Below, one piece after another: positions 1,838 to 35,199 of a stretch of DNA of 35,199 nucleotides. The notes beneath the pieces are model-generated. The model made no database searches and was not told the DNA's origin. It was given only the letters and a program-made list of their open reading frames with translations. This stretch comes from a virus. Numbering within the stretch: position 1 is the first letter of the stretch; each line of letters begins with the position of its first letter. The position numbers were made by a program, and so were the translations under genes. Where the stretch lies: the IMG/VR virus record IMGVR_UViG_3300039008_000097, positions 1-35,199 of that record, one strand, 5' to 3'.

Positions 1838-4546
1838 TCACCCTTCGAGTGCTTGGCCGTCTTTGAAGATTTTACCTCTAACCAGCAGAGGATCGTCGCT
1901 AATATCACCCATAATACCAAAAGTATCGGAAATCTCACCTTCCACCGATTCCCCTGCGCTCAAAATCTTACCCTTAGTGAGCAAAGGAAGATCATTAATT
2001 TCCCCTAGAGCCCCAAAGGATTCGTCAATATCACCAGTAACTGATTGACCAGAAAGGACTATTTTACCCTTTACTCCTTCCCCTGTCTCATCTATCAGAC
2101 CAACGACAGTGAAGGAAAGATTTGCTCTACCAAAAGCGGCCCGCGTTGTATCTCCCGACTCGTTCTGGATTGCAGCAATACTGGGGAAAGGTTGAATTGA
2201 TGCGCTTGTTGCATCACCAACCTCAAACTGATTAGAAAATAGCCGTCTCCCTGTTTCTGCTTCAATGGCAGCACTTTGGCTGTCCCCGGTCTCAAGAAGA
2301 TTTGCAGCTATCTCGTTTATAGCCCTCAGAGACGATGACTGTATATCGCCAAATTCAACCGCATTAGCAACCAGGTTGGATGGTTGAGATAGATCGGCAG
2401 ACTGGGAATCTCCCGTTTCGAGTTGATTTGCAGAGAATTCTGTGACTAATGACAAAAAAGCTGAAACAGAATCACCCCCCTCTACTACTATTGCGGAAAG
2501 GTTCGCCTTCTGCTCAGCCTCAATGGCTGCGAAGGTTATATCACCTTCTTCAAATAGTCCGGACTGGATACTTCCGATAATGGCTAGTTCAGATAATTGG
2601 CTATCACCGCTTTCAGGAAGAAATGAAGATAATTGCGCCTGGGATGCAAAAGAGGATGTTGTAGCATCTCCCAATTCTAACTGAGAGGCCGATACAGACG
2701 CGGTTTGACTCGTGCTGATAGTGGCGGCCGTTAAGTCTCCATCGTCGCTTTGTGAGGCTGACAGCGCCACCAAGACTTCAAGGGATGCCGAGCTACTATC
2801 CCCTACCTCAGATAAAGACGCAAAAACACCAACAACCGAAAGAAGTTGGGCACTACTGGAATCACCTAACTCTAGTTGGCTCGATGATATTTCGGCTGTC
2901 TGAGCGGTGCTAATTGAAGCCAGGGAAATATCACCAGATTCTGACAAACTACCTGACAGTGAGGTAATAACGCCAAAATCAGACAGTGTGGCGTCACCAA
3001 GCTCCTGCGATGCTGCTGAAATAGCTGAGGGAGACTCTATAGCAGCCCCTGTATTGTCCCCTGACTCAGATGTAGCAGAGGACAAAGAAACCAAGGAAGA
3101 TAGAATAGATGACGTTACATCCCCATCTTCACTCTGAGAGGAACTGAGATTGGCCGCACTCCCGGCATCTTCGAGCGTATCAAGGTTTACTCCCCAGAAC
3201 CCCGCCCATCCCGGCTGAACCTCATATTGGCCGCCGTCCTCACCCCCAGGAAGCTCTTGAACACTTGCGCCTATCTCATCATTGGCAGCAAGAGCCACAA
3301 AGCCCATAAAGTTTGCAGACCAGCCAAATGTGTCCTGTGACCCTTGGTTGTTTCGGGCATAATTCCCGTGAAAAACGTCATTATCTTCGGTGCCGTTGAC
3401 CGTGGGGCGTCCTTGTGCAGTCCATCGGCTTGTTGTTGAAACTATCTCCTGGGCAGCCGATATATTGGCACCTAACAGAGCATCCATGGCAACAACTGCA
3501 TCAAACGCTGTATCACTGGCGCGACTGAATGACGCCGTGTCCTCAATAGTGATTCCGGTAGTTCGGGCAATTGTTTGGTCAACTGGGCCTGTGACATTCA
3601 GATCAATTCCGCCTAAATCATCAACACTGTGAAACACTTCGGCGGAATCATTTAATTCAATGACAACCAGTGTGTGGTCGCCAACAGCGGGCGTTGATCC
3701 GTCAATATCAGCGCCGCCCTGCCCTGCACCAACACCATCACCCCTATAGCAGTTGTGCTCAATCGTAACATCTGCCGTGTCAGTCTCGAACAAGTGGGTG
3801 AACATGTTGCCCGATTCGTCATTTGAGCCGTTCCGATAGTAGGCGTATGATTTGGCGGCGTTCTCCTGGGCACCATCAACATCAATACCCATCCAGCGCT
3901 GCGTTCGACCACCCCGGCCCTCATAAAATTGGCTCCCCAAAACCAAATATCGTTTGTTATCGCCAGCAGCCGTCACCACATCACCAGATCGCGTGATGTT
4001 TGCACCTTCCGCAATAGTTGACCAACTGCTGACAATGTTCGGTGTGACTCCGCCCAAAAGCGCCGAATCAGTTGAGGAGTAAAGACCAATATCTGAGTAA
4101 TAGAACGGGATTACATCAATTGAGCTGCGTACCGTGCCGCCAGTAGGTGTGTCAGCGTCCCGCTTCCACTGAAATTGCAGCACCGATGATGCTGACGGTG
4201 AATCTATGAACGCCCAGCAGGATACATAAGACCTGTCCTCTGATGTATCTCGGTTATAACCGCCGGTCGGGCTTCCTGCGAAATTACCACTTCCAGACGT
4301 TTGAACAAACCGTCCCTGCGGGTTGTGACGTCCGTTACTGGTGTCTTCAAATTCAAAACGCCCGATTACTAGAAAGCCATCGGGTAAATCAGAAGATGGG
4401 AGTGTTAAAGAAGATGACGCAGAAGCAAAGGAATAGGCAGAGCTGTCATTCCGCTGCTCTGTAGGGAATAAATTAGCAGGTGCTGTCCAGGCCGTGGTTG
4501 GCAGAATCGCAACAGAACCGCCTGTCCAGCGGCCCAGAACAGCCAT
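1838..4546 (-). CDS. 902-aa protein: about 465-aa N-terminal region plus 16 ExGD repeats of 21/23 aa plus two ~32-aa C-terminal repeats; possible fibre or beta-solenoid protein
   Basis: Long uninterrupted ORF. All plus-strand ORFs across it are antisense shadows of the repeats (recurrent ISP tripeptides). Repeat structure counted directly from the translation. Confidence 0.9.
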   Translation of the reverse strand: MAVLGRWTGGSVAILPTTAWTAPANLFPTEQRNDSSAYSFASASSSLTLPSSDLPDGFLVIGRFEFEDTSNGRHNPQGRFVQTSGSGNFAGSPTGGYNRDTSEDRSYVSCWAFIDSPSASSVLQFQWKRDADTPTGGTVRSSIDVIPFYYSDIGLYSSTDSALLGGVTPNIVSSWSTIAEGANITRSGDVVTAAGDNKRYLVLGSQFYEGRGGRTQRWMGIDVDGAQENAAKSYAYYRNGSNDESGNMFTHLFETDTADVTIEHNCYRGDGVGAGQGGADIDGSTPAVGDHTLVVIELNDSAEVFHSVDDLGGIDLNVTGPVDQTIARTTGITIEDTASFSRASDTAFDAVVAMDALLGANISAAQEIVSTTSRWTAQGRPTVNGTEDNDVFHGNYARNNQGSQDTFGWSANFMGFVALAANDEIGASVQELPGGEDGGQYEVQPGWAGFWGVNLDTLEDAGSAANLSSSQSEDGDVTSSILSSLVSLSSATSESGDNTGAAIESPSAISAASQELGDATLSDFGVITSLSGSLSESGDISLASISTAQTAEISSSQLELGDSSSAQLLSVVGVFASLSEVGDSSSASLEVLVALSASQSDDGDLTAATISTSQTASVSASQLELGDATTSSFASQAQLSSFLPESGDSQLSELAIIGSIQSGLFEEGDITFAAIEAEQKANLSAIVVEGGDSVSAFLSLVTEFSANQLETGDSQSADLSQPSNLVANAVEFGDIQSSSLRAINEIAANLLETGDSQSAAIEAETGRRLFSNQFEVGDATSASIQPFPSIAAIQNESGDTTRAAFGRANLSFTVVGLIDETGEGVKGKIVLSGQSVTGDIDESFGALGEINDLPLLTKGKILSAGESVEGEISDTFGIMGDISDDPLLVRGKIFKDGQALEG
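1841..3151 (-). repeat. Coding tandem-repeat array (63/69-bp units, degenerate at DNA level)
   Basis: GD cores recur at intervals of 21,21,21,23,21,21,23,21,21,23,21,21,21,23,21 residues between aa 475 and 799. Two longer repeats follow: GDIDESFGALGEINDLPLLTKGKILSAGESVE and GEISDTFGIMGDISDDPLLVRGKIFKDGQALEG. Confidence 0.9.
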
Positions 4547-4548
4547 AA

Positions 4549-4950
4549 TTAAACACCGTCGTCATAAGCGGCAGTATTAACCCAGTTGCCGGACATTTGA
4601 ACGGTTTGGCCAGCCACAATAGACGGGTTGTCAATAGTTACACCGTCACCCCCATCAATCAGGCCAGACTCAAGGAATACAGCCCCGGATGTGTTTAGCT
4701 GGTAATGGCCCGCCGTACCTGTGGCATCTGCGGAACTATCAGCAGTGATTGCATTCGATGTGAGAACTCCGGATGCCGCAGCACCAGCCCAACCACCAGC
4801 ATTTCCGGTCAACTGAGCAAGCAATGTGCCTTGTCCACCCGTACCACCATTAGCCCCTGATCTCACCTGAACCTGTGCGGACGAACCACGCTGCGTACTC
4901 AATTCATCCATCAAAGCGTTTCGTAACGCATCTGTTCTACGGATAGTCAT
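4549..4950 (-). CDS. Hypothetical Gly/Ala/Thr-rich 133-aa protein, immediately upstream of the 902-aa gene
   Basis: ORF track. Only a 2-nt gap to the next gene. It resembles small proteins I recall seeing beside phage fibre genes, but I cannot name a family. Confidence 0.7.
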   Translation of the reverse strand: MTIRRTDALRNALMDELSTQRGSSAQVQVRSGANGGTGGQGTLLAQLTGNAGGWAGAAASGVLTSNAITADSSADATGTAGHYQLNTSGAVFLESGLIDGGDGVTIDNPSIVAGQTVQMSGNWVNTAAYDDGV

Positions 4951-5297
4951 TTTTCAGCTCCCAGTTCAGACAAAGCACGGTTAGCCTCTTCAATTTTGGC
5001 CACATGGGGCTTGAGTTCTTCGATATTATCCAGAGCATACTTATCCCGAACACTATGAAGCCACTCGTAACATTTCGATACCTTAGTGGTATCGTATTCG
5101 TCACCTGTTTCCACCTCAATCCCGGTATCATGCGACTCAAGGGGCTTGGATTCCTTACCATCAACGAAATCAGGGTTGCTCTTTGAGTAGATATGAACCA
5201 CCCAACTCCCCGAACTTCGGTCGATCACCGGGCAAGCAGTAGAGAGGCGATAGTTCCATACCTCTTTAATGTCCACCCCTTTAAATTGCTTGCTCAT
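4947..5297 (-). CDS. Hypothetical protein, 116 aa
   Basis: ORF track. GGAG RBS upstream and a 4-nt overlap with the next gene. Confidence 0.7.
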   Translation of the reverse strand: MSKQFKGVDIKEVWNYRLSTACPVIDRSSGSWVVHIYSKSNPDFVDGKESKPLESHDTGIEVETGDEYDTTKVSKCYEWLHSVRDKYALDNIEELKPHVAKIEEANRALSELGAEK

Positions 5298-11290: not shown

Positions 11291-11845
11291 ATGGCACTAA
11301 CTTACCATGAAATTCGGCAGGCAAGGATTGAGGCTGAACAGACTATTGCCAGAGCGGATGAAGCCGCCAGACAGGCAGCCAGATTGATACAGGGAAGGCT
11401 TCGCGCCTCTGGCATCTGGAATACGCGATTTTCAGGAAAGGTTGCCGGGGCCTGCAGCAATGGCTATATCAGGATCGGAATACTTGGCCAGAGAATAAAA
11501 GCTCATCGCTTGGCTTTTCTCTATATGACTAGCGGAATCCCTGCTGTAGTTGACCACAGGAACCATATCACTACAGATAACTCCTGGGAAAATATCAGGC
11601 CATCAAACCACTCTTTAAACAACGCCAACACAGTACTCAGAGCTGACAATACAACAGGGTTTAAGGGTGTGAGCTGGAAGAAAGAAAGGCGCGCTTTTGT
11701 CACACAGATAGCTGAAGGCGGGAGAAAAAAACATCTTGGATATTTTAATTGCTTTATAGAGGCTGCAACGGAATACGATAAAGCAGCTATAAGCCTCTTT
11801 GGCTCACACGTCCTAACCAATGAATCACTTGGTCTTCTGCCATGA
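11291..11845 (+). CDS. HNH endonuclease with C-terminal AP2 DNA-binding domain (free-standing homing-type endonuclease)
   Basis: AHRLAFLY...VDHRNHITTDNSWENIRPSNHSLN is HNH_3-like. It is followed by TGFKGVSW...F...I...GK..HLGYF....EAA.AYD.AA, which is AP2-like. Confidence 0.85.
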   Translation: MALTYHEIRQARIEAEQTIARADEAARQAARLIQGRLRASGIWNTRFSGKVAGACSNGYIRIGILGQRIKAHRLAFLYMTSGIPAVVDHRNHITTDNSWENIRPSNHSLNNANTVLRADNTTGFKGVSWKKERRAFVTQIAEGGRKKHLGYFNCFIEAATEYDKAAISLFGSHVLTNESLGLLP

Positions 11846-13027: not shown

Positions 13028-13201
13028 ATGATACACCGCATAAAGCACGGAATCCGCATAGGCGGCCCATATCAGTTAAGTGATGGAAATTACATATTTT
13101 CCAATGCAGACACACGAAAAGGCAAAAGAATACTGAAAAAACGCGGATATGAGCCTCACAATACATTATTTGGCCCATGTTTTAGGAAGAAAATGAAATG
13201 A
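13028..13201 (+). CDS. Hypothetical 57-aa basic protein (not in ORF track)
   Basis: ATG 13028 with a strong GGAGAAGG RBS. Its TGA overlaps the next ATG. Confidence 0.5.
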   Translation: MIHRIKHGIRIGGPYQLSDGNYIFSNADTRKGKRILKKRGYEPHNTLFGPCFRKKMK

Positions 13202-13329
13202 TGTGTCCTGTATGCTGCTCCCCCACAAAAGTCCTGAATGTCATCAAGAAAAAGACGCGACCTGACAGAAACATTGACGAAGACAAAGTGATTAGGCACA
13301 GAAAGTGCGTCAATAAAATATGTGGGTAG
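13198..13329 (+). pseudogene. 5' fragment of a Zn-ribbon protein gene truncated by the IS insertion
   Basis: MMCPVCCSPTKVLNVIKKKTRPDRNIDEDKVIRHRKCVNKICG is followed by a TAG (13327-13329) formed at the IS junction. The CxxC ... CxxxxC pattern suggests a Zn ribbon. Confidence 0.7.
13321..13328. repeat. Target-site duplication, left copy (TGTGGGTA)
   Basis: The 8 bp abutting the left IR match 7 of the 8 bp abutting the right IR (TGTGGGGA at 16180-16187). Confidence 0.6.
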
Positions 13330-13350
13330 GTAGTGGGTCAGTTTGAAATT
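13329..13350. repeat. Terminal inverted repeat next to the transposase 3' end: GGTAGTGGGTCAGTTTGAAATT
   Basis: Exact reverse complement of 16158-16179. Complementarity extends one more base to 13328/16180. Confidence 0.9.
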
Positions 13351-14252
13351 TTCTTATACGGCCCTCTTTTCTTGGATGGAGGAGCCATGGCGTCTATCAG
13401 ACCCACAATGAATTCTAGATCATAGACACTATCAGCAATTCCGGCTTCCATAGCAGGTGTTACCCTCAGCGACTTATGGATACGGCAGAAATTGTAGTAC
13501 ATGTAATGCAGTGATATGGCGTGCATGTGATTTTCAATCTTCTTGCTGAATCCATTGGTCAAGCGTGTAAATCGCCGCATAGACATTCTCATGGTGAGAT
13601 TCTGGCGCTCAACGTAGCTGGTGCTAATGTGCTTGGGATTCGGATCGCCTTTCTTGACTTGTCTCTCGGCCCTTACAAATTCGGATGGTGAATAACGGCG
13701 ATTTGTCTCTTTATCCGTGTAAGGGCCGTATATCTTTATGAGTCGACCATAATCGATGTTGTTGCCAAAACTGTCGTCTATGGCGCTCAGGTAGGGTTGG
13801 TGGCCATCGGTCGACAGTTGGACGCGATTAGCCAGACGAGAGGCCAAATCTTCAATAAACAGCTCAGCGTGCTCTAGGGTGCGATTTCCGACGTGCCAGC
13901 AGGGAACCAGCTTGGTATCAGAGTCAATGGCCACCCAGGTCCAAATATCGCCAGCCTGGTCTTTCTTCTCTTCCGGTACGTTCTTTTGCTTGGCGTACAC
14001 AAACGACCAGATTTCGTCGCATTGCACCCGCTGACAGCTCAGATTGCGCAACACACGGTCCTGATAGCCCAAACAGGCCTCGCCAGCGTCTCTGAGCAAC
14101 TTGCAGACCGTATTCCGGCTGACATCCGCCATACGAGCGGCAGCCCTCAGAGAATTACCCTCAACAAGCATGTGCAGTATCTGGGCGCGTTGGTTGGTAC
14201 TCAATTTATTCATACTGAACATTATGCATGACCGGCCAAGAAATGCAAGCAT
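13338..14252 (-). CDS. IS1-family-like DDE transposase (single ORF)
   Basis: N-terminal HTH (NSLRAAARMADVSRNTVCKLL). The C-terminal block SYVERQNLTMRMSMRRFTRLTNGFSKKIENHMHAISLHYMYYNFCRIHKSL parallels the IS1 InsB motif (IERxNLxxRQ...R.T..FSK....H). The true start may be the Met at residue 11 or 14. Confidence 0.85.
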   Translation of the reverse strand: MLAFLGRSCIMFSMNKLSTNQRAQILHMLVEGNSLRAAARMADVSRNTVCKLLRDAGEACLGYQDRVLRNLSCQRVQCDEIWSFVYAKQKNVPEEKKDQAGDIWTWVAIDSDTKLVPCWHVGNRTLEHAELFIEDLASRLANRVQLSTDGHQPYLSAIDDSFGNNIDYGRLIKIYGPYTDKETNRRYSPSEFVRAERQVKKGDPNPKHISTSYVERQNLTMRMSMRRFTRLTNGFSKKIENHMHAISLHYMYYNFCRIHKSLRVTPAMEAGIADSVYDLEFIVGLIDAMAPPSKKRGPYKKISN

Positions 14253-14311
14253 ATAAGTTAAAATTCATGCTTGCATTTTGATCCTTGCGCCAATAATATG
14301 CAAGGATCAAA
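14241..14311. promoter_or_regulatory. Two abutting perfect 12-bp inverted repeats in the transposase / P63C divergent region
   Basis: Repeat A is AAATGCAAGCAT (14241-14252) with ATGCTTGCATTT (14267-14278). Repeat B is TTTGATCCTTGC (14277-14288) with GCAAGGATCAAA (14300-14311). Both share a TGCAAG/CTTGCA core. A further CTTGCA overlaps the P63C start codon at 14325-14332. Confidence 0.6.
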
Positions 14312-14329
14312 AAAAAGAGGGTTGCTTGC

Positions 14330-15292
14330 ATGGGTCACAAAGATGAAAGTAAGTCTATTGGCGGAAAAGCCAGGGCGGCTGCACTATCACCAAAGAAACG
14401 AAAAGAGATTGCAGCCAAGGCAGCAATAGCGCGATGGGGTGCGAAATCAACGCATAAAGGAAATTTCAAAGAAGAATTTGGTATAGATGTTGACTGCTAT
14501 GTTTTGCAGGATGAATCCAAAACAGCCGTTATTAGCCAAACTGGGATGGCTAGAGCGCTTGGATTGAGTGCAAGGGGAAACGCATTTCCCCGGTTTGCAA
14601 ATAGCAATGTAATGCAAAAATACATCGGCGCCGAACTTCGCGAAAAAATCAACAATCCACTTAAATTTCAATGGGTTAGCCCCGGCGCCGAACAGCCCCC
14701 TCTTTCGGTGCATGGATATGAGGTGACGCTTCTTATTGATGTATGTAAAGCAATCCTAGCTGCGGCAGATGCCGGTGATCTACTTGCCCGGCAAAAACCC
14801 ATGGCGAAACAAGCTCATATCATCACCAACGCGTCAGCAAAACACGGAATCACTCAATTAGTTTACGATTTAGCTGGTTTCGACACTATTGCAGAGGAAA
14901 GGATTGCAGCGTTTAAGCTTTTCGTAATAAAAGAAGCCAGAGAATATGAAAAGGAGTTTCCCGACGAACTTTATAAACAATGGTATAGGTTATATGAATT
15001 GCAGCAGCCTCAGCGCGGTAGACCTTGGGCATTCAAAACCTTAACACTTGACCACGTCTACTGGCCATTAGCAAAAAGTAATGGGAAGATTTTGGAACTT
15101 ACAAGGCTACAAAAAAGCTCCAGCGAAAAACGCCATCAAAAGCTCCATCAATTTTTATCCGACATCGGAGTAAAGGCGTTGAGGCAGCACCTTGGGCAAT
15201 TGTTAGGTATTGCCCAAGTCTCTAGTAATCGAGATGAATACGAAAGAAATATCAATAAAGTTTTTGGTGAGCAGCACGAGTTAGACCTTTAA
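14330..15292 (+). CDS. P63C-domain protein with N-terminal GGKARAxxLxPxxRKEIAxKAAxARW motif (IS passenger)
   Basis: EFPDELYKQWYRLYEL...RP.....T.DHVY.PL....ILEL......S..KRHQKLHQFLSD.G...L.QHLG.L matches my memory of the P63C domain (PF10546). AGAGGG RBS. Confidence 0.7.
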   Translation: MGHKDESKSIGGKARAAALSPKKRKEIAAKAAIARWGAKSTHKGNFKEEFGIDVDCYVLQDESKTAVISQTGMARALGLSARGNAFPRFANSNVMQKYIGAELREKINNPLKFQWVSPGAEQPPLSVHGYEVTLLIDVCKAILAAADAGDLLARQKPMAKQAHIITNASAKHGITQLVYDLAGFDTIAEERIAAFKLFVIKEAREYEKEFPDELYKQWYRLYELQQPQRGRPWAFKTLTLDHVYWPLAKSNGKILELTRLQKSSSEKRHQKLHQFLSDIGVKALRQHLGQLLGIAQVSSNRDEYERNINKVFGEQHELDL

Positions 15293-15531
15293 TTCTTTTT
15301 CCACCTTGCTTTGGCGGCTTTGCGGGCAATCTCCTTCCGTTCTTCTGGCGTGAGACTCGCCGCTCGCGCCTTTCCTCCTTTTAACCCTCCTTTCCTTCCC
15401 AAAGCAACAGCATTTGGGTCTTTTCGATCTTTCTCTTTGTTTTGCTCGACTTCAGCTTCGTCGCCAATTGATAAATCAACAACATGCTTGGCGAGCTGGT
15501 TAGCGTCTGTAGGTCTTTTGGGGGTTTTCAT
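15289..15531 (-). CDS. 80-aa basic protein with C-terminal GGKARAASLTPEERKEIARKAAKARW motif (IS passenger)
   Basis: ORF track. Convergent with the P63C gene, with a 4-nt overlap of the 3' ends. 20 of 26 motif residues are identical to residues 11-36 of the P63C protein. Confidence 0.7.
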   Translation of the reverse strand: MKTPKRPTDANQLAKHVVDLSIGDEAEVEQNKEKDRKDPNAVALGRKGGLKGGKARAASLTPEERKEIARKAAKARWKKN

Positions 15532-15613
15532 TCCATCATGTTACTTAAGTGGTCAAGCATTTGGCAATATTATTTGTTATTCTATACGTGCATAGAAAAC
15601 GTGAGGAACCCTC

Positions 15614-16111
15614 GTGGTCGGGTTTCTCTTTGAATACAAGACCAGATTAACGGCAAAGGCTGATCACTTTTGCTTAGGAAATAGAAGAGACGCTTTCCTC
15701 ACGTCAGCGTATGCACTGCCCGGCACCATTTTAATATGGTGCCACATTTGTATGAATGATAGAGGACGAATAATGGAAAAAGAAGAACTGATTTTAAACC
15801 AAAGCCCCATGCTGTGGGGGCTTAGCGCTGATACTATATTTTATGGATGTCTGGTTTTGATTGGAGTTTTGTTGATTTTGTTTATTCTGGCGTGTATTGG
15901 AAACTATGTCCTTGCCACAGAAAATATACGGCGAAAGCTGTTAACTACGCAAGTGTTTTTAGAGGCAACAGAGATTCAATTGAGAGACAAAAAAGAAATC
16001 ATAAGCTCCCTCAGTGAAAAGATTAGGCAGATAGAAGAAAAACATGATCAGCAAGAAGAGTATTATGACAAGGAAATAGAGAAGCTAACTAATAATGCAT
16101 ACAATTTCTAA
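15614..16111 (+). CDS. Membrane protein with C-terminal coiled coil (IS passenger); alternative start ATG 15773 giving 112 aa
   Basis: Hydrophobic segment IFYGCLVLIGVLLILFILACIGNYVLA is followed by a heptad-like charged region (EIQLRDKKEIISSLSEKIRQIEEKHDQQEEYYDKEIEKL). GTG 15614 has a GAGGAA RBS and ATG 15773 has a GAGGA RBS. The part from 15773 on is visibly AT-rich. Confidence 0.65.
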   Translation: MVGFLFEYKTRLTAKADHFCLGNRRDAFLTSAYALPGTILIWCHICMNDRGRIMEKEELILNQSPMLWGLSADTIFYGCLVLIGVLLILFILACIGNYVLATENIRRKLLTTQVFLEATEIQLRDKKEIISSLSEKIRQIEEKHDQQEEYYDKEIEKLTNNAYNF

Positions 16112-16157
16112 ATAATCTCCCAAGGATGGGGTTTTAATTAGGGTGCGCAATCTTTTT

Positions 16158-16179
16158 AATTTCAAACTGACCCACTACC
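16158..16179. repeat. Terminal inverted repeat (cargo side): AATTTCAAACTGACCCACTACC
   Basis: Exact reverse complement of 13329-13350. Confidence 0.9.
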
Positions 16180-16187
16180 TGTGGGGA
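16180..16187. repeat. Target-site duplication, right copy (TGTGGGGA)
   Basis: See the left copy; 7 of 8 bases are identical. Confidence 0.6.
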
Positions 16188-16392
16188 TCGAGGGGCGTTC
16201 CCCTCACCTCGAACTACTGAATACTGCCCAGGTCTATCCAAGTTGGAATATATCGCTACACAGGCAATGTGCTCGCTATTATCTGCAGATATTGATGGGA
16301 AATATGACAACCACCGAGGAACCAGCCTTTACAAGAAGGCTAGAAATCACGCATTAAATTTATTGGAAGAATTAGATGAAGCTAGAAACTGA
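16186..16392 (+). pseudogene. 3' fragment of the IS-disrupted Zn-ribbon gene
   Basis: The frame DRGAFPSPRTTEYCPGLSKLEYIATQAMCSLLSADIDGKYDNHRGTSLYKKARNHALNLLEELDEARN is open and in phase with 13198..13326 once the IS and one TSD copy are removed. It has no start or RBS of its own. Confidence 0.65.
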
Positions 16393-34105: not shown

Positions 34106-35199
34106 TATCGTCTACCCATGGCTTTTATTGGTTTTGGCATGTAAACAACCTGCTTACGGTTAAGGTCGCCACGCCTAACAGCAAAACGCCGCATCATATA
34201 GGCGTAACGGATGGCGTCTAGCATATCATCTCTTGTCTTGACAATCTTTCCTTTCTCATCCCTATGGTATTGACGCCATTCATCCATTAGGTCTATTTGG
34301 CCCTTGAATATCTTTAATCTTCCAGTTCTGGCGCGGTCAAGCAACTCATAAATTCCATTCTCTACAGAATTGCCGCCACCTTTCATACCCCCTTTACCAT
34401 CAGGGATTTGAGGCCATGTGGCATGCTCTGGCAGCATTCTAAAGCCAGCGGTTGCGTAATGATCTTTTTGTTGGGCAGTCACATCACGACCCTTCTCATG
34501 CATCAGTCCATCATGGGGCCACGCCACTGGTACATTATCACTCCATGCCTTCACGGCTCCCCATGCGTCATTAGCCGACACCTTACTAGCCTTCCATGAG
34601 TTAGTGACATAAACCACATCGGCATCCAGGTCTATCGCTAGTTGAACGTGGGCTTGTGGGTGGTCGTAGCCAAAATCCATACCGTTGATAACCAGCCAAT
34701 GAGCAGGGATATCAAAACGATCACACAACACCATTTCATCGCCAATGTCATAAATTCTGCCATGGCCAAGCATTGGTACGCCTTTAGTCCGCATATCGCG
34801 CTGGTGCTCTGGGTACTGAAGCAATAAGCGTTCACGCTTCTCAGGCGTCATGTGGGGCGCATCATCCCAGCCTTTCATCATAAAGAATTGATCTGGACTG
34901 GGGTCATCCATGAACTTTATAACCAGATCGGTGCGGCCATTCTCTGGGGTGAAGGTGTAAATGATCCTCCCCCCTTTCCCTTTATCTCCATTGATTGTCC
35001 GGGTCAATACCTGGGGACGGATGGTCTGATCTCTGGGCTCCTCGTCAATATGAACCCAATCAACCACGTCGCCCATAATGGCGTGTTGGCCTTGGGAGTA
35101 AGACCAAAACTGAATAACTGATGTTCCGTTGGTGCCGTGCCTAACCCTAACTGTTCTCATGGCATTTGGGGTTCCAGTAGCAGACTCCCAGCTTACAAT
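34105..35199 (-). CDS. terL: Terminase large subunit, C-terminal part (ATPase Walker B plus nuclease half)
   Basis: ORF-track protein contains DWVHIDEEP (Walker B-like) and conserved terminase-like blocks. The frame remains open upstream of the listed ATG to the window end and continues at base 142 after removing the 141-bp overlap. The joined gene is about 491 codons. It sits next to terS and the portal gene. Confidence 0.9.
   Translation of the reverse strand: MVSWESATGTPNAMRTVRVRHGTNGTSVIQFWSYSQGQHAIMGDVVDWVHIDEEPRDQTIRPQVLTRTINGDKGKGGRIIYTFTPENGRTDLVIKFMDDPSPDQFFMMKGWDDAPHMTPEKRERLLLQYPEHQRDMRTKGVPMLGHGRIYDIGDEMVLCDRFDIPAHWLVINGMDFGYDHPQAHVQLAIDLDADVVYVTNSWKASKVSANDAWGAVKAWSDNVPVAWPHDGLMHEKGRDVTAQQKDHYATAGFRMLPEHATWPQIPDGKGGMKGGGNSVENGIYELLDRARTGRLKIFKGQIDLMDEWRQYHRDEKGKIVKTRDDMLDAIRYAYMMRRFAVRRGDLNRKQVVYMPKPIKAMGRR
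35059..35199. repeat. Terminal direct repeat, right copy (identical to 1..141)
   Basis: Same comparison as the left copy. Most likely an assembly overlap of a circular contig. Confidence 0.95.

Follow-up and report, generated by a model that had tools for sequence, protein, structure and literature searches.

Does the 2.85-kb segment that interrupts a small gene in a P22-like phage genome represent a mobile unit that arrived there in one piece, and to which kind of element does it belong? The question is raised by IMG/VR virus record IMGVR_UViG_3300039008_000097, whose positions 1 to 35,199 form the stretch of DNA analysed here (35,199 nucleotides, the window), and by an earlier note on it, made from the sequence alone, that had proposed an IS1-family-like insertion sequence (IS) with passenger genes, brought into a phage gene by simple insertion. 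This core reading is supported by transposase profiles, by ends and target duplications that recur throughout a clade of relatives, and by the closed phage genome. We conclude, with a probability of about 0.88, that 13329-16179 is an intact transporter IS (tIS), i.e. a passenger-carrying IS, of a large IS1-related clade, and that it moved as a unit into a gene of a P22-like phage. The window element is of a known sort, an IS1-family transporter IS, in an uncommon location.

The mobile unit comprises 2,851 bp and is bounded by perfect inverted repeats. The repeat at the transposase end (13329-13350, + strand) reads GGTAGTGGGTCAGTTTGAAATT and includes the stop codon of the transposase gene, and the repeat at the other end, close to a gene that we call small80 (16158-16179, - strand), is its exact reverse complement. 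Both element tips read GGTAGTG. A repeat finder stretches the inverted match to 23 nt (13328-13350 and 16158-16180, 100% identity); ends placed one base outward in this way were rejected, as the flanks then agree at 5 of 8 positions only and the tips of the family are GG. Directly outside the unit lie 13321-13328 (TGTGGGTA) and 16180-16187 (TGTGGGGA), the left and right copies of the target duplication, which are identical at 7 of 8 positions; by our own arithmetic the chance of a flank match of at least 7/8 is ~4e-4. The same 7/8 pair is present in two further assemblies, L020 and L104. Four open reading frames (ORFs) lie between the repeats, encoding 304 aa (-), 320 aa (+), 80 aa (-) and 112 aa (+), and the three that do not encode the transposase occupy 14330-16111. 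Apart from its two tips the unit contains no repeats, and it has a single transposase gene, i.e. the two flanking IS copies of a composite transposon are missing. Instead, passengers and one transposase are enclosed within one pair of repeats and the duplication lies outside the whole unit, which is the arrangement of a tIS.

Relatives of the element provide an independent view of these ends. The exact 22-mer GGTAGTGGGTCAGTTTGAAATT occurs in 19 IMG/VR contigs, with interiors that are ~70% identical or unrelated. Element ends were then called in ~100 fetched loci by pairing the nearest GGTAGTGGGTCAGTTTG-like ends (at most 4 mismatches) around the transposase, and among 70 evaluable elements with the same tips, located in unrelated contexts, 55 have perfect 8-bp duplications and 5 a 7/8 duplication. 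The terminal consensus of the clade is GGTAGTGKCTCAGTTTGAAWTT, with G1, G2, T6 and G7 invariant in 59 relatives. What the earlier note had said about the ends has therefore held: the exact reverse complementarity of 13329-13350 and 16158-16179 (22 nt, or 23 with the extension), the 7/8 flanking 8-mers as traces of an 8-bp duplication and the fit of the GGTAGTG tips, now seen family-wide, to the GGnnnTG of IS1; all its coordinates and sequences were correct. The imperfect duplication of the window is that of a genuine insertion of this clade plus one later point change.

The complete elements of the clade measure 1,985-4,913 bp (median 2,953 bp), and all contain extra genes; a cargo-free member was not found among 59 complete elements. 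An IS with cargo had been expected to be rarer still than an IS in a phage, which does not apply to this clade, where every complete member found is 2.0-4.9 kb long and carries extra genes. Dozens of elements share the order small80 (+), cargo (-), transposase (+), the last gene ending in the repeat. Two miniature, non-autonomous derivatives with the same repeats were noticed as well, one of 503 bp (L007, 5677-6179) with the perfect duplication AAATATTC and one of 193 bp (L014, 4140-4332). Moreover, 59 reconstructed target sites (L017-L101 and the window) show a weak symmetric preference, CAA-N7-(8-bp duplication)-N7-TTG, of which the insertion site in the window has the CAA half (13311-13313).

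The transposase gene (13338-14213, -) encodes a DDE transposase in a single ORF of 291 aa with an N-terminal helix-turn-helix (HTH) and the triad D66/D136/E202. The ORF as such spans 13338-14252 (304 aa), and the database copy P0001 has 291 aa, beginning at 14213, where the Met is probably the true start. Pfam HTH_38/HTH_23 match residues 16-55 and DDE_Tnp_IS1 (PF03400) matches residues 194-247 only, with 31 bits vs a gathering score of 24.1; in NCBIfam the top match is transpos_IS1 (NF033558; 68.9 bits, residues 17-160), i.e. IS1 is the top match in both libraries. The E-region aligns to IS1 InsB with 39% identity over 41 aa. Together with PF03400, this agrees with the earlier description of a single-ORF DDE transposase with an InsB-like C-terminal motif. 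Across 29 homologues, D136 and E202 do not vary and the conservation of D66 is at least 90%. In total the homologues number more than 8,000, the closest ones other than the protein itself being 77-78% identical, and species-representative genomes contain at least 558 loci with 57-70% identity, among them genomes of Acidobacteriota, Verrucomicrobiota, Pseudomonadota, Nitrospirota, Chloroflexota and other phyla. Close plasmid-borne relatives are labelled 'IS1 family transposase' by RefSeq/PGAP. Sequence searches of the PDB with the transposase and with the 320-aa passenger protein returned nothing meaningful.

The element is inserted in a phage gene whose two parts can be recognized on either side. 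The 5' part (13198-13328, +, 43 codons) encodes a zinc-ribbon N-terminus with a CxxC...C pattern, similar to that at the start of NrdR (CPxC...RRRKCxxC), and ends with the 8 nt of the left duplication; it is 43.6% identical over 39 aa to a 56-aa zinc-ribbon ORF of the element-free relative L021. The 3' part (16180-16392, +, 70 codons and a stop) is homologous to stand-alone proteins of ~73 aa, i.e. P0121 (75% identity), P0242 and P0247. A TGA at 16168-16170, inside the element, closes the frame and so keeps translation from running on out of the element into the 3' part. If the element and one 8-mer are removed, 13198-13320 and 16180-16392 join to an uninterrupted ORF of 111 codons, and the reconstructed empty site reads ...GTCAATAAAATATGTGGG[G/T]ATCGAGGGGCG... 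The computed fusion stands as previously described; the halves are separate genes in L021 and in the other homologues, and the fusion is lineage-specific. L021 is the only relative with both halves, its separate 56-aa zinc-ribbon gene (1495-1665) being translationally coupled to a 73-aa gene via an ATGA overlap, and two other homologues of the C-terminal half stand alone and start with MSNKD or MSSE. The reconstructed site is 53 nt shorter than that of L021, which brings the halves in frame. As the fusion junction (K36-C37/V38/N39-K40, ~13306-13311) lies ~12 nt upstream of the 8-bp target, the fusion is not a deletion from the IS end, and extra I-C-G codons provide a fourth cysteine (C37-x4-C42). 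From these alignments we conclude that the ancestor probably already had a lineage-specific, fused gene for 111 aa, later interrupted by the element at codons 42-43.

The phage itself is P22-like (Lederbergvirus-type), as indicated by genes for portal, coat, scaffold and head-closure proteins, a tailspike head-binding domain, TerL and a Sf6-type TerS (PF16510, PF11651, PF09008 and PF20901 among the matches), together with NinB and NinG; endolysin, RecT and replication loader genes are present too. An exact direct repeat of 141 bp at the termini (1-141 and 35059-35199) and a Logan contig that links the end of the window to its start indicate that the genome is circular with a unit of 35,058 bp. 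Element plus duplication amount to 2,859 bp, 8.2% of this genome. The insertion is also found in the Logan assembly L104 (SRR21418661), identical over 10,970 bp, and in L020 (JGI 3300045488), with three single-nucleotide polymorphisms (SNPs) in 12,831 bp. Two of these, 13255 and 13260, one of them non-synonymous, lie in the 5' remnant of the interrupted gene and the third, 13687, in the transposase gene; a pair within 6 nt would fit relaxed selection on a gene that is no longer intact, the numbers being tiny. A megablast comparison of the element and its flanking DNA on both sides with 50,697 deposited phages gave no match.

Several findings weigh against our reading. The transposase remains under the NCBIfam IS1 equivalog cut-off (68.9 vs 100), its spacing between the second D and the E is ~66 residues vs ~25 in IS1, its N-terminus (MNKLSTNQRAQILHMLVEG...) opens directly with the HTH and has no Cys/His cluster, i.e. 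no zinc finger, and HTH and DDE domains are found in one continuous ORF of 291 aa and not in a frameshifted two-ORF layout. The target duplication has one mismatch. No empty-site allele of the window phage was found: an exact pattern search for the empty site in IMG/VR was negative, and relatives of the reconstructed 111-aa protein were detected neither in IMG/VR, nor by tblastn in deposited phages, nor in JGI metagenomes, a collection evidently lacking the sample that holds L020. In a search via the neighbours of NinG, the 100% match was the window phage with its element and the 71-73% relatives had other genes downstream. A second copy of the exact element exists in none of the databases searched. 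Thus, of the checks that the earlier note had suggested, the one for relatives with an empty site yielded only the element-free L021 with its two separate genes, and the one for further copies of the same unit returned a single site; rather than an identical unit at two or more sites, there are different units of the clade, each with its own duplication. Since neither an empty allele nor a second copy is available, the mobility of the window copy is inferred from its intact parts and its relatives. Finally, the regulatory roles proposed below for the P63C and small80 proteins are suggested by motif co-occurrence only.

These points have to be weighed against other explanations, the first of which concerns the family. 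IS1 elements are defined by GGnnnTG tips, as given in the ISfinder table, by an 8-9 bp duplication, by a DDE transposase that IS1 profiles recognize and by an InsA-type zinc finger in front of the HTH, and usually by insA and insB' joined through a programmed -1 frameshift, a single-ORF subgroup being accepted by ISfinder as well. Other DDE families with GG...TG ends might have supplied the element, as an 8-bp duplication is a feature of IS6 and IS1595 too, and derivatives of IS1595 with passengers are known. An origin in IS1595 or IS6/IS26 would agree with the missed NCBIfam cut-off and with weak IS6 matches (NF033587, 29.6 bits; PF13610, 23.6 bits). Those scores are, however, far under their cut-offs of 125 and 27, respectively, and neither the zinc finger Zn_Tnp_IS1595 nor DDE_Tnp_IS1595 matches at E up to 0.1 in Pfam or NCBIfam, whereas IS1 leads in both libraries, passes the Pfam threshold and is the PGAP label of close relatives, so that we regard another family as very unlikely. 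The one-ORF layout fits only the single-ORF or ISMhu11-type subgroups of IS1. Because its ends and its duplication are those of IS1 and PF03400 matches part of its transposase above threshold, while the two-ORF layout, the zinc finger and an equivalog-level NCBIfam score are not found, we file the element, judged by its sequence, as a member of an IS1-related, single-ORF, cargo-carrying subgroup. That the junctions are chimeras of a phage and a bacterial contig comes to mind because the data are metagenomic assemblies; yet three assemblies, which come from at least two samples (JGI 3300045488 and Logan SRR21418661), agree exactly at either junction, the genome closes into a circle around the element, and the flanks carry the target duplication and rejoin in frame, which makes this explanation so improbable as to be nearly negligible.

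Two further scenarios accept the element and question its history. The insertion may have been followed by an IS-mediated adjacent deletion of ~53-62 nt, in which case the ancestor would have had two genes as in L021 and both the 111-codon ORF and the 7/8 repeat would be accidental. IS1 is known to promote adjacent deletions, the 53 nt that the reconstructed site lacks relative to L021 lie close to the insertion point, and the C-terminal half has only stand-alone homologues, of ~73 aa. Such a deletion would, however, start exactly at the IS end and destroy the duplication, whereas a 7/8 duplication survives, the junction lies away from the IS end and the I-C-G codons add a cysteine; we therefore consider this course of events unlikely. 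Alternatively, the unit could be an old, fixed and now immobile resident of the phage lineage, i.e. a domesticated module, as all three assemblies contain it, no empty allele is known from our searches, the duplication already shows a mismatch and the G+C content of the element (0.43-0.46) is near that of the phage. The perfect terminal repeats, the full-length transposase with its intact DDE triad, the conserved promoter boxes and the element-free, diverged L021 argue against this, and with only 0-3 SNPs in 11-13 kb the three assemblies sample one recent lineage, rendering long residence quite unlikely.

Insertion of an intact tIS would thus proceed as follows. The 291-aa transposase may bind both 22-bp terminal repeats via its N-terminal HTH, and the whole 2,851-bp unit would move as one piece with 8-bp staggered cuts at the target, as the 8-bp duplications of the clade indicate. 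The element would have jumped from a host replicon, its presumed source, into a replicating P22-like phage genome and split a gene of the nin region, probably a non-essential one, at codons 42-43, and the phage still propagates with an insert of 8.2% of its 35,058 bp. As P22-type capsids hold ~43 kb, a headful phage of 35 kb may have ample spare capacity. The presumably autoregulated P63C cassette described below probably also throttles transposase expression, its TGCTTGCA array overlapping the transposase promoter.

Passenger genes had been reported for the element before, and they are present; the description of them as three unrelated genes does not hold, as small80 belongs to the core in 53 of 62 complete elements and P63C recurs in 10 of 62. 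The gene small80 (15289-15531, -), on the transposase strand, encodes a basic helical protein of 80 aa and is a conserved accessory or core gene. Its homologues are likewise located on the transposase strand, usually 60-300 nt inside the transposase-distal end, and share the blocks KPKRPRDxNQLAKxIVDxATGE and GGLKGGKARAxxLTxExRSEIAKKAAxARW. The protein has no match in Pfam, PDB or PADLOC, and it is a probable regulator. The 320-aa protein (14330-15292, +) contains a P63C domain (Pfam P63C, 43.2 bits; phrog_2384, E 2.5e-89) and has relatives not only in other elements but also in 58 deposited phages; a matching trio of small80, P63C and transposase (67/58/70% identity) is present in L022, a Methylomarinum metagenome-assembled genome. 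A basic motif, GGxARAxxLSxxxRxEIAxKAAxARW, is common to small80 and the N-terminus of the P63C protein (14330-14450, +). It has no match in Pfam or PDB and could represent a small module for DNA binding that has not been described before. Single-sequence AlphaFold models of small80 and P63C (predicted local distance difference test, pLDDT, 65 and 41.5, respectively) were too poor for a fold search.

The third passenger gene (15773-16111, +) encodes a 112-aa protein with one transmembrane helix and a coiled coil and is followed by a terminator-like hairpin (16118-16131). It is unique to the window element, no other element of the clade set containing a homologue, and is placed between the repeat and small80, where relatives have a short leader only. 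Region 15773-16131 looks like a self-contained cassette, composed of a GAGGA ribosome-binding site, the 112-aa ORF and the hairpin, that reads outward to the element end, and the protein weakly resembles Rz-like spanins (E 0.006). PADLOC did not match any of the four element proteins.

The transposase and P63C genes diverge from a control region of 116 bp (14214-14329) that harbours four ATGCTTGCAT-like sites in alternating orientation (core TGC-N2-GCA; 14243-14252, 14267-14276, 14298-14307 and 14322-14331), one over the -35 element of the putative transposase promoter and another overlapping the P63C start codon. At least two TGCTTGCA/TGCAAGCA sites are located upstream of the transposase in 9 of the 10 elements with a P63C gene and in none of the other 52, with a density of these sites of 2.66 per kb vs 0.02 per kb elsewhere. 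A TGCTTGCA triplet also precedes stand-alone P63C genes that lack IS ends, in Escherichia phage vB_EcoP-611R6 and Burkholderia phage Bups phi1 (site positions in the deposited phages: 3890/3946/3970 in L102 and 2069/2101/2124 in L103). The TGCTTGCA array is thus probably the operator of the P63C protein itself, in the element also extending over the transposase -35 region. A purely P63C-specific motif was considered and rejected; part of it overlaps a clade-wide ATGCTTG box and only the multi-copy array is linked to P63C.

Within the 120 nt that precede the transposase gene in 62 elements, this box, ATGCTTG/CAAGCAT, shows a 26-fold enrichment (14267-14273 in the window), and it usually lies within a palindrome spanning -35 to -10, e.g. 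ATGCTTGACGCTAAGCAT. Similar palindromes precede small80, and in the window an ATGCTTG(AC) box (15554-15560, -), at the -35 position of the putative small80 promoter, matches the box at the transposase promoters of the clade. The shared box suggests that one element-encoded regulator may serve both core promoters, transposase and small80.

Across the clade, a Pfam census of 122 proteins found HTH_3 (16), P63C (10), Peptidase_M78 (7), SocA_Panacea (6), Fic (3) and Bro-N (3), and among the single matches GmrSD, DNA methylases, an AbiEii-like ATPase, RelA_SpoT and a dCTP-deaminase-like protein. By these domain assignments, the cargo is dominated by toxin-antitoxin, defence and phage-regulator genes. 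The clade recurs in phage DNA, L004 being a further case: an unrelated phage contig carries a member at 2533-5183, with the perfect duplication GAATGGCC, between a DNA methyltransferase gene and the TerL/portal genes, and the cargo of this element comprises a HigB-like toxin and an XRE-ImmA/IrrE protein.

Regarding the remainder of the window, a genome of 35,058 bp is on the small side among P22-like phages, and none of the called genes has a recorded integrase domain. The nin region contains, between a small ORF and NinB, a gene for an HNH/AP2-domain endonuclease (11291-11845), which may be a mobile gene of the homing-endonuclease type. Rfam and tRNA scans of the window found nothing.

An IS is rare in phage genomes, with one IS per 346 kb of phage DNA in a survey (PMC3429520, Leclercq et al.), in line with what the earlier note had assumed, and this makes a closed phage that carries an intact cargo IS of 2.85 kb useful as an example from nature. 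It shows that phages can receive ready-made, self-regulated cassettes by way of transposons and, in turn, can take transposons from host to host. The clade-level picture is probably more generally useful and more novel than the single insertion. We tentatively suggest, well aware that this is the less probable outcome, that the elements form an uncatalogued, very widespread IS1-related clade of obligate cargo carriers with a fixed core of small80 and transposase and with ATGCTT...AAGCAT palindromes at both promoters, which might act as a dedicated shuttle of toxin-antitoxin, defence and phage-regulator cassettes between chromosomes and phages. If so, the shuttle clade would be one of the ways in which 'moron' genes, e.g. 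the autoregulated P63C cassette, enter or leave phage genomes, and transposase expression would be partly under the control of a cargo regulator. The core accessory gene, the enrichment of toxin-antitoxin and defence cargo, the operator-like palindromes at both core promoters and the TGCTTGCA operator that travels with P63C genes are testable hypotheses.

How does the element compare with known systems? IS1 has the tips GGTAATG/GGTGATG, and the window element resembles it in its GGnnnTG tips, its 8-bp duplication and its E-region matching PF03400/InsB. In addition, the transposase gene ends in the terminal repeat, and at the opposite end a small, inward-directed gene takes the place of insA. 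Differences from IS1 are the single 291-aa ORF without the N-terminal zinc finger instead of insA/insB' joined by frameshift, the size (2.85 kb vs 0.77 kb), the longer D-E spacing, the score under the equivalog cut-off and a small80 protein without detectable similarity to InsA.

The closest concept is the tIS. Siguier, Gagnevin and Chandler are said to have described in 2009 such elements as the ISMhu11 group in IS1 and ISPna2+ and ISNwi1+ in IS1595. The window element shares with them one transposase and one repeat pair, passengers inside, a duplication around the unit and a size within 2-5 kb, whereas its clade differs in the near-universal 80-aa accessory gene, in the absence of a cargo-free member from the 59 complete elements and in a cargo made up mainly of toxin-antitoxin, defence and phage-regulator genes. 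The concept of the passenger-carrying transporter IS is quoted for the IS1 and IS1595 families (PMC9330008), and in the literature on ISMhu11 and IS1 passenger genes we found nothing specific.

Stand-alone P63C genes (phrog_2384) of lambdoid and P22-like phages, e.g. those of vB_EcoP-611R6 and Bups phi1 and 933W L0095, are homologous to the P63C gene of the element over the full length (47-54% identity to the closest) and, in the first two phages, likewise have the TGCTTGCA triplet just upstream, overlapping ribosome-binding site and start codon. Those genes are part of the phage backbone, with neither IS ends nor a window-type transposase, whereas here the gene resides inside a transposon. 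Finally, as in the classical insertions lambda::IS, P1 IS1 and P22::Tn1/Tn10, a transposable element occupies a dispensable region of a phage genome, the difference being that the insert described here is a cargo-carrying IS that accounts for 8.2% of the genome of an uncultured phage.

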